This document shows positions 50,730-50,886 of a DNA stretch of 64,000 nucleotides, in pieces (positions within the stretch are counted from its first letter, which is position 1; every line of letters begins with the position of its first letter). The position numbers were made by a program, and so were the translations under genes. Under the pieces are notes generated by a model. It saw nothing but the letters and a program-made list of their open reading frames with translations, was not told the DNA's origin and made no database searches. Location: IMG/VR virus record IMGVR_UViG_3300030098_005409. The stretch is one strand, 5' to 3'. Source of the stretch: a virus.

Positions 50730-50805
50730 TGGTGGAGATGACAGGATTCGAACCTGCGACCTGATGCGTGCAAGGCAACTGCTCTCCCAACTGAGCTACA
50801 TCCCC
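50730..50805 (-). tRNA. trnA: tRNA-Ala(UGC)
   Basis: GGGGATG/CATCTCC acceptor stem with G3:U70, anticodon TGC, encoded CCA; U28:U42 mismatch. Confidence 0.95.
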
Positions 50806-50810
50806 ATATA

Positions 50811-50886
50811 TGGAGCCGAGAACAGGAGTCGAACCTGCGACCTGATGATTACAAATCAACTGCTCTACCAACTGAGCTATCTCGGC
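50811..50886 (-). tRNA. trnT: tRNA-Thr(UGU)
   Basis: GCCGAGA/TCTCGGC acceptor stem, anticodon TGT, encoded CCA; U28:U42 mismatch. Confidence 0.95.

Follow-up and report, generated by a model that had tools for sequence, protein, structure and literature searches.

The closest described counterparts of the locus reported here are the tRNA clusters of large lytic phages such as the T4-like ones, and in the tRNA region of T4 itself, exchange between co-infecting phages occurs via the SegB homing endonuclease (PMC2330249). The present array, which lies in a large tailed phage, resembles these clusters in that it is compact, confined to one strand and interspersed with small ORFs, and its anticodons read the A-ending codons favored by the phage. 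To our knowledge, near-identical tRNA bodies for different amino acids are not a described feature of the T4 cluster, and such a pair, a tRNA-Thr(UGU) and a tRNA-Ala(UGC), is the subject of this work.

Concerted evolution has been described for tRNA families (PMC4981973). The likeness to our locus lies in identical patches across different tRNA genes of one genome. The differences are that the patch proposed here would cross the Thr, Ala, and Val families, sparing the anticodon loop and the acceptor stem, and that conversion is inferred here from mosaic patterns. A tRNA resembling a nearby tRNA for another amino acid is also known from alloacceptor remolding or tRNA gene recruitment in mitochondria and eukaryotic nuclear genomes (PMC4783518, PMC3923123), where the remolded gene is closer to another amino acid family than to the same-anticodon tRNAs of its relatives (PMC4783518). 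The Thr gene studied here does not follow that pattern, since it differs from its Ala neighbor at 16 positions and from the Thr genes with which it was aligned at 0 to 7.

A further known system comprises phage tRNAs that escape nucleases, such as those of T5 facing PARIS AriB or PrrC and those of mycobacteriophages. Evasion of nucleases has been proposed for phage tRNAs in general (PMC10264068); phage-encoded tRNA-Thr(UGU) belongs to the set that counters PARIS in E. coli, with the escape changes located in the anticodon stem-loop (PMC12409363, PMC10264068). The AriB nuclease of PARIS cuts E. coli tRNA-Thr(UGU) and tRNA-Lys(UUU) between positions 40 and 41 (U36AAUC|A41), and T5 tRNAs escape by changes at or around this site, in the case of tRNA-Lys at positions 39 and 41 (PMC12409363). 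The locus described below differs from these systems in that its Thr gene keeps the intact cleavage motif and in that its anticodon arm is common to many cellular genomes.

The tRNA array and its twin genes

The window, that is, the whole stretch of DNA analyzed here, comprises 64,000 nucleotides of an IMG/VR virus record (IMGVR_UViG_3300030098_005409). It is a single long run of minus-strand genes with a G+C content of ~40%, and its genes include those for a baseplate wedge protein, PhoH, glycosyltransferases, and a DUF6267 protein. Among the ten ORFs scanned around the array, the only Pfam names obtained were CTP_transf_like, DUF2452, QueF-like, and DUF6267. Among cultured phages, the DUF6267 protein has its best relatives in marine T4-like phages (Melnitz, HTVC008M, and cyanophages; ~39% identity), and a search of 50,697 phage records for a close cultured relative at the DNA level yielded tRNA-sized matches only. 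Thus, the source appears to be an uncultured marine tailed phage that is kin to the T4-like myoviruses. The features of the array and its surroundings are as follows.

50811-50886, minus strand: tRNA-Thr(UGU), 76 nt with CCA encoded (ARAGORN; Rfam RF00005, 70.5 bits)
50730-50805, minus strand: tRNA-Ala(UGC), 76 nt with CCA encoded (ARAGORN; Rfam RF00005, 67.9 bits)
50297-50704, minus strand: QueF-like ORF (Pfam PF14489), inside the array between Ala and Pro
49837-50292, minus strand: DUF2452 ORF (Pfam PF10504), inside the array between Ala and Pro
49783-49860, minus strand: tRNA-Pro(UGG), third member of the array (ARAGORN; Rfam, 70.7 bits)
52648-52960, minus strand: one-piece tmRNA of 313 nt (ARAGORN; Rfam RF00023, 133 bits), tag ANDADYGLALAA
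50900-50928, minus strand: sigma-70-like promoter match (10/12; TTGAAT-17-TATAAT); it ends 14 nt upstream of tRNA-Thr

The Thr and Ala genes are separated by 5 nt, and the tmRNA gene lies 1.8 kb upstream of the array. Both genes fit the cloverleaf with its conserved core and score above the RF00005 gathering score of 29, and the pair 28:42 is the sole nonstandard one flagged by the tRNA model in each; the anticodon stem of tRNA-Pro is fully Watson-Crick. As judged from their sequences, the Thr and Ala genes are probably functional, ordinary elongator tRNA genes at the head of a Thr-Ala-...-Pro array. Since sigma-70-like matches are not enriched in the region (14 observed versus 12.3 expected after shuffling), only the position of the match at 50900-50928 is suggestive; transcription of the tRNA unit may start there. 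Codon use in the window (ACA, 36% of Thr; CCA, 37% of Pro; GCA, 28% of Ala; GC3, 0.38) fits a supply role, and the job of these tRNAs is likely to support the decoding of A-ending codons in an AT-rich phage.

The tRNA-Thr is composed of the acceptor stem GCCGAGA/UCUCGGC with U73, the anticodon arm GUUGA-UUUGUAA-UCAUC, and the T arm GCAGG-UUCGACU-CCUGU, and the tRNA-Ala of the acceptor stem GGGGAUG/CAUCUCC with A73, G20 in the D region, the anticodon arm GUUGC-CUUGCAC-GCAUC, and the T arm GCAGG-UUCGAAU-CCUGU. Common to the two are G27-C43, U28·U42, U29-A41, and G30-C40 in the anticodon stem, the variable loop AGGUC, and the T stem GCAGG/CCUGU with its G49·U65 pair. G3·U70 is the major determinant for AlaRS, and bacterial ThrRS recognizes G1-C72, C2-G71, and the anticodon bases G35 and U36. 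These elements are found where they should be, G3·U70, A73, and G20 in tRNA-Ala and G1-C72, C2-G71, and the anticodon UGU in tRNA-Thr. Among the matches listed, U73 is carried by 53 of the 108 cellular Thr(UGU) genes that bear a GUUGN/NCAUC arm.

An earlier sequence-only reading of this DNA had reported 47 identities between the genes over the 49 positions left when the acceptor stem and the segment 31 to 39 are set aside, the presence of U28:U42 and G49:U65 in both, and, in each, the acceptor stem expected for its amino acid. All of this was confirmed, the last two points by reading the sequences and the first by an independent count, which breaks down into 18/19 positions in the D region (8 to 26), 8/8 at 27-30/40-43, and 21/22 in the variable loop and T arm. 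The two mismatches are at position 20 (G in Ala, U in Thr) and at T-loop position 59 (A in Ala, C in Thr); over the full length, 16 of 76 positions differ. For comparison, 36 other Ala(UGC)/Thr(UGU) pairs, each located on one viral contig, share 24 to 41 of the 49 positions, so that the baseline of likeness is already ~70% and the real surprise is limited to 18 variable stem positions. When 2,669 same-locus pairs for different amino acids were compared, all 18 of these positions were shared only in the window and its closest relative, contig L117, and the next best pairs shared 16. Both stems are also shared by 66 of the 33,608 pairs formed by Ala and Thr genes of different contigs (0.2%), the data set being enriched for the arm. 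The likeness of the twins is thus statistically unusual, yet reachable by chance.

By nearest-neighbor energies, the two mismatch arms taken alone are barely stable (-0.9 and -1.1 kcal/mol, versus -2.4 to -6.1 kcal/mol for paired arms). For tRNA-Thr (50814-50886, minus strand), RNAfold favored a slipped hairpin, 30-35/43-48, which would bury the anticodon, over the cloverleaf (-27.0 versus -22.2 kcal/mol). We did not take this hairpin as real, because the slipped pairing is broken by the common GUUGC/GCAUC variant of the arm; the prediction also ignores tertiary contacts, and the hairpin is probably an artefact of it.

Alleles of the array in related phages

Relatives of the array were collected as viral contigs via the DUF6267 protein and as 31 metagenome contigs carrying the exact Ala arm. 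Their arrays have the gene order Thr-Ala-Val-Pro-Gly-Ser. All 31 metagenome contigs hold phage-type arrays, and in none of them does tRNA-Ile(GAU) stand beside tRNA-Ala, as it does in the rRNA spacer, which indicates that the Ala allele belongs to the phage clade in the data searched. L117, L490, and L532 carry exact copies of the Thr gene of the window, and the Ala gene of the window differs by one base from those of L117, L520, and L532. Since these contigs come from other metagenomes, an assembly artefact was ruled out.

The Thr genes of this clade fall on two backbones. Besides the identical copies, the window type occurs in L520 and L526, at 3 differences, and in L511, at 7. L520 and L526 have A28 and thereby a normal A28-U42 pair. 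In L478, L500, and L511, which are more distant phages, the acceptor (GCCGAGA/UCUCGGC, U73) and the T stem of the window are combined with a Watson-Crick arm, (U/A)CUGA/UCAGA, and UGGUC. Six of the seven differences between the window and L511 lie at positions 26-28 and 42-44, the remaining one being a T-loop base, and at these six positions the states of the window match those of the adjacent Ala gene and of the other Thr type. This other backbone, carried by most related arrays, has the acceptor GCCGGUA, A73, and CCGUG/CAUGG or a similar sequence as its T stem. It was found with at least seven anticodon arms, most of them altered at positions 39 to 41 (L001, L002, L005, L194, L516, L518, L539, and others).

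The Ala gene of the window has counterparts in related arrays that share its acceptor stem and T arm. Across these arrays, the acceptor stem and D arm of Ala are constant, and they are joined to one of two T stems, GUAGG/CCUAU or GCAGG/CCUGU, each with G49·U65, and to one of three anticodon arms, namely, UCAGU/ACUGA (L001 and L005), GCUGC/GCAGC with C28-G42 (L110), and GUUGC/GCAUC with U28·U42 (most arrays). The Ala genes of L110, L001, and L005 combine the acceptor and T arm of the window with these other anticodon arms. Between the arm of the window and the Watson-Crick allele of L110, the only differences are at 28 and 42; a G28·U42 allele (L364/L369) differs from it at positions 28, 32, and 38. 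The mismatch arm is also found on tRNA-Val in L001, L004, L005, and L014; the Val genes of L006 and L154 lack it.

We considered whether the T arm of the Thr gene had recently been copied from the adjacent Ala gene and dropped this idea, because the T stem GCAGG/CCUGU accompanies the window type of Thr acceptor in L478, L500, L511, and L490, which are phages without the Ala allele. Conversely, the Ala allele with GCAGG/CCUGU sits beside a Thr gene of a different acceptor and T stem in many arrays. The T stem is native to both lineages, and its presence in the two twins needs no recent copying. A constant 5' half of the Ala genes had likewise looked like a trace of cassette swapping. This was weakened when the 25-mer in question turned up in 55 viral contigs, joined to 24 distinct 3' parts, which identifies it as a consensus sequence and no marker of recent common descent.

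Across 36 unique arrays, Thr and Ala alleles assort freely. In L006 (16202-16688) and L154 (1815-2307), a stretch similar to the QueF-like gene separates Thr from Ala; in the window, it is found between Ala and Pro; and no match to it was obtained in L117, where the Ala and Pro genes are 3 nt apart. This variable placement makes the array appear to be a hotspot of insertion and rearrangement. The genes flanking the arrays are 73 to 89% identical among relatives.

As a separate observation, several arrays encode tRNA-like genes of 92 to 96 nt, called Asn(GUU) by ARAGORN, with a long variable arm and an unusual anticodon loop (CUGUUUC or UUGUUUC). They adjoin a normal tRNA-Asn (L047, 18327-18421; L069, 17518-17613; L078, 7913-8004; L511, 5555-5649), and some of these arrays have an additional odd-bodied "Asn."

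The U28·U42 arm in viruses and cells

The distribution of the arm was determined by searching for the pattern AGCA-GUUGN...NCAUC-AGGUC. It was present in more than 120 viral contigs (at least 122 Thr(UGU), 7 Ala(UGC), and 4 Val(UAC) genes) and in at least 118 cellular contigs (at least 108 Thr(UGU), 2 Ala(UGC), and 1 Arg gene). The cellular bearers include Alpha- and Gammaproteobacteria, Verrucomicrobiota, Acidobacteriota, Nitrospirota, and candidate-phyla (CPR) bacteria, among others, and the two Ala(UGC) genes among the matches listed are from Methylorubrum zatmanii and a Methylobacterium. Again among the matches listed, the arm is combined with 31 to 41 acceptor stems and 59 to 65 T arms, and the pair 31:39 covaries (A-U, C-G, and U-A) while 28·42 stays U·U. 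In cellular Thr(UGU) genes with GUUGA/UCAUC, e.g., those of Aurantiacibacter, Altererythrobacter, Kordiimonas, SAR116, SAR86, Opitutaceae, and Woeseiaceae, positions 26 to 48 are identical to those of the window Thr, including U28·U42, and the whole Woeseiaceae gene differs from it at 7 of 76 positions.

In a sample of 878 unique viral tRNAs, which were not selected on the arm, U28·U42 was found in 13 of 78 Thr(UGU) (with four stem contexts among them), 4 of 47 Ala(UGC), 1 of 28 Val(UAC), 2 of 32 Gly(UCC), and three singletons of other isotypes. Only five other non-Watson-Crick pairs at 28:42 occurred in this sample, such that U·U accounts for 23 of 28 cases. The mismatch was seen in 2 of 498 further viral tRNAs and in none of 85 neighboring cellular tRNAs. 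In Thr(UGU), it was present in 4 of 150 sampled Pseudomonadota genomes (~3%), which makes it a minority form, yet a form that is spread widely and clearly conserved. Our literature searches for U28/U42 or for U-U mismatches in the anticodon stems of bacterial tRNAs gave nothing relevant.

Cellular Ala(UGC) genes carry U28·U42 in two stem contexts, GUUGC/GCAUC and GUAGC/GCUUC. The latter was observed in eight genomes (G298, G085, G238, G029, G225, G093, G197, and G025), and in G298 both Ala(UGC) and Thr(UGU) have the mismatch, on different stems. The genomes compared included an unpublished one (G388), on which nothing stated here depends. The phage clade differs from the cells in that only there is the arm combined in Thr, Ala, and Val; in six cellular genomes, four of which are of named species, the search returned an Ala(UGC) alongside the Thr arm, and this Ala has a fully paired arm. 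The U28·U42 arm is thus a natural, widespread form of tRNA-Thr in bacteria and phages alike and is not specific to phages.

We also noticed that Altererythrobacter xiamenensis (G407) has a partial second tRNA-Thr(UGU), consisting of a 5' half that reaches up to the anticodon loop (the loci of the two copies are C5:532558-532587 and 534751-534780). The partial copy lies 2.2 kb from the intact gene, a pattern left by elements integrated in a tRNA gene.

These findings bear on the suggestion of the sequence-only reading that the shared distortion protects against host anticodon nucleases. An evading feature would be expected to be absent from cells. The arm occurs in at least 108 cellular Thr(UGU) genes and U28·U42 in cellular Ala(UGC) as well, so that the mismatch cannot mark a tRNA as belonging to a phage. 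Moreover, U36AAUC|A41 is intact in the window Thr, with no change at the AriB site; this retention, which concerns one nuclease only, leaves the anti-nuclease idea unsupported. That reading had itself named a scaffold or mismatch common in host tRNAs as the observation that would count against it, and this was found in part, in cellular Thr(UGU) of more than 100 genomes and in cellular Ala(UGC).

Origin of the likeness

We consider it probable, from the sequence comparisons, that the likeness of the twins is a mosaic, in which tRNA modules came to be shared by short-patch conversion or recombination and the U·U pair was inherited rather than acquired as a phage countermeasure. The likeness is built up in four layers. 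The D arm, variable loop, and T loop consist of sequences that are near-universal in tRNA-Ala and tRNA-Thr; the stem GCAGG/CCUGU with G49·U65 was present in each lineage before the genes became neighbors; the stem top G27-C43/U28·U42 is a conserved signature of a widespread class of cellular and phage Thr(UGU) and in this clade is placed on Ala, Val, and a second Thr backbone as well; and tRNA alleles are shuffled between related phages. We infer that, most likely, short patches underwent gene conversion or recombination, both among adjacent tRNA genes and among co-infecting relatives, with crossover points in the invariant D-arm and V/T-loop sequences. The occurrence of the mismatch arm on Thr, Ala, and Val backbones in one marine clade, together with the free assortment of alleles, points to such events in an array that behaves as a hotspot. 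Amino acid identity would have been kept because the acceptor stems (G3·U70 in Ala; G1-C72 and C2-G71 in Thr) and anticodon loops were not exchanged or because exchanged versions were selected away, and the U·U pair would be inherited, tolerated, and possibly mildly useful.

The sequence-only reading had proposed that one gene arose from the other by identity switching or gene conversion. Of these, conversion across genes is plausible if limited to a short tract, positions 26-28/42-44 at the anticodon-stem top, and does not hold for the T stem, which is native to both lineages. For the Thr gene to have converted the Ala gene, two short patches would have to be transferred separately, leaving positions 31 to 39 untouched. 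Duplication followed by an identity switch, by which one twin would be a retooled copy of the other, has in its favor the 47/49 identity of the bodies and the spacing of 5 nt, and we nevertheless hold it to be very improbable. The Thr gene has 0 differences from those of L117, L532, and L490, 3 from that of L520, and 7 from those of L511 and Woeseiaceae, versus 16 from the adjacent Ala; counterparts of both genes that are not twin-like exist in related and other phage arrays, those of the Ala gene with the same acceptor stem and T arm; and about nine coordinated changes in the acceptor stem and five in the anticodon arm would be required.

A more serious rival, which we still judge unlikely, is coincidence: each gene would have descended vertically in its own lineage, and the likeness would result from the small pool of Ala and Thr sequences and from point mutations, with no exchange between Thr and Ala. 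Point mutation could indeed have yielded the Ala arm without a donor, as two substitutions separate it from the L110 allele, and a single substitution lies between the Thr arm and the A28-U42 arm of L520/L526. Divergence of the flanking genes is such that ordinary substitution with compensatory changes contributes, and it is for these mutational routes and this divergence that we give coincidence of preexisting alleles the weight we do. It is helped by the native T stem of both lineages and by the 0.2% of cross-contig pairs that share both stems, and since the twins were picked from a very large scan, rare coincidences are expected. It does less well with the mismatch stem top on four backbones (two Thr types, Ala, and Val) in one clade, with the rarity of U28·U42 in other tRNAs (2/498 viral, 0/85 neighboring cellular), with the clustering of six changes at 26-28/42-44 between the window Thr and that of L511, apart from one T-loop base, and with the restriction of the full 18/18 stem match to the lineage of the window and L117 among the 2,669 same-locus pairs.

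Selection is hinted at by the recurrence of U28·U42 in Thr, Ala, and Val; the mosaic explanation has no need of it. If the pair were selected and spreading among U34 tRNAs of four-codon boxes (Thr, Ala, and Val), it might act on the flexibility of the anticodon stem, on decoding, or on recognition by stem-cutting, AriB-like nucleases. Conservation of the pair across deep divergence with covariation around it, its origin in cellular Ala(UGC) in two stem contexts, and the predominance of U·U among non-Watson-Crick 28:42 pairs (23/28) are consistent with this; so are the AriB cut adjoining the pair, the escape of T5 tRNAs via positions 39 and 41 (PMC12409363), and the seven or more anticodon-arm alleles of the clade's Thr gene, most of them changing positions 39 to 41. 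The pair is shared by cells and viruses and thus provides no phage mark, the window allele keeps the full U36AAUC|A41, only ~3% (4/150) of the sampled Pseudomonadota have it in Thr(UGU), and no paper on it turned up in our searches. The natural A28-U42 variant in the otherwise near-identical Thr of L520/L526 further suggests that U·U is close to neutral. An adaptive pair is therefore improbable in our view. We would give equally little weight to a compound proposal in which U28·U42 is a selected signature of this class of U34 tRNAs, marine T4-like phages move the anticodon stem with the mismatch as a "cassette" between tRNA genes of different amino acids, and the Thr alleles record an arms race with AriB-like, stem-cutting nucleases; the alternative Thr arms altered at positions 39 to 41 leave a small possibility for the last part.

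Taken together, each shared component of the twins has an ordinary source, and on present evidence, no new mechanism or defense function is involved. The case is of a kind already known, combining mosaic phage tRNA arrays with concerted evolution of tRNA genes, and its unusual remainder is the mismatch arm on Thr, Ala, and Val backbones in one marine phage clade. A possibly more useful by-product is the finding that U28·U42 is conserved and isotype biased in Thr(UGU) of many bacterial phyla and phages; since near-identical natural alleles with U28·U42 and A28-U42 exist, the effect of the pair on decoding, modification, and nuclease sensitivity is directly testable. As for the phages, the pair serves as an example of tRNA arrays as mosaics, in which arms and genes are reshuffled among relatives and the identity parts stay fixed, and it calls for caution in the use of tRNA similarity as a guide to the origin of a tRNA gene or to the host of a phage.
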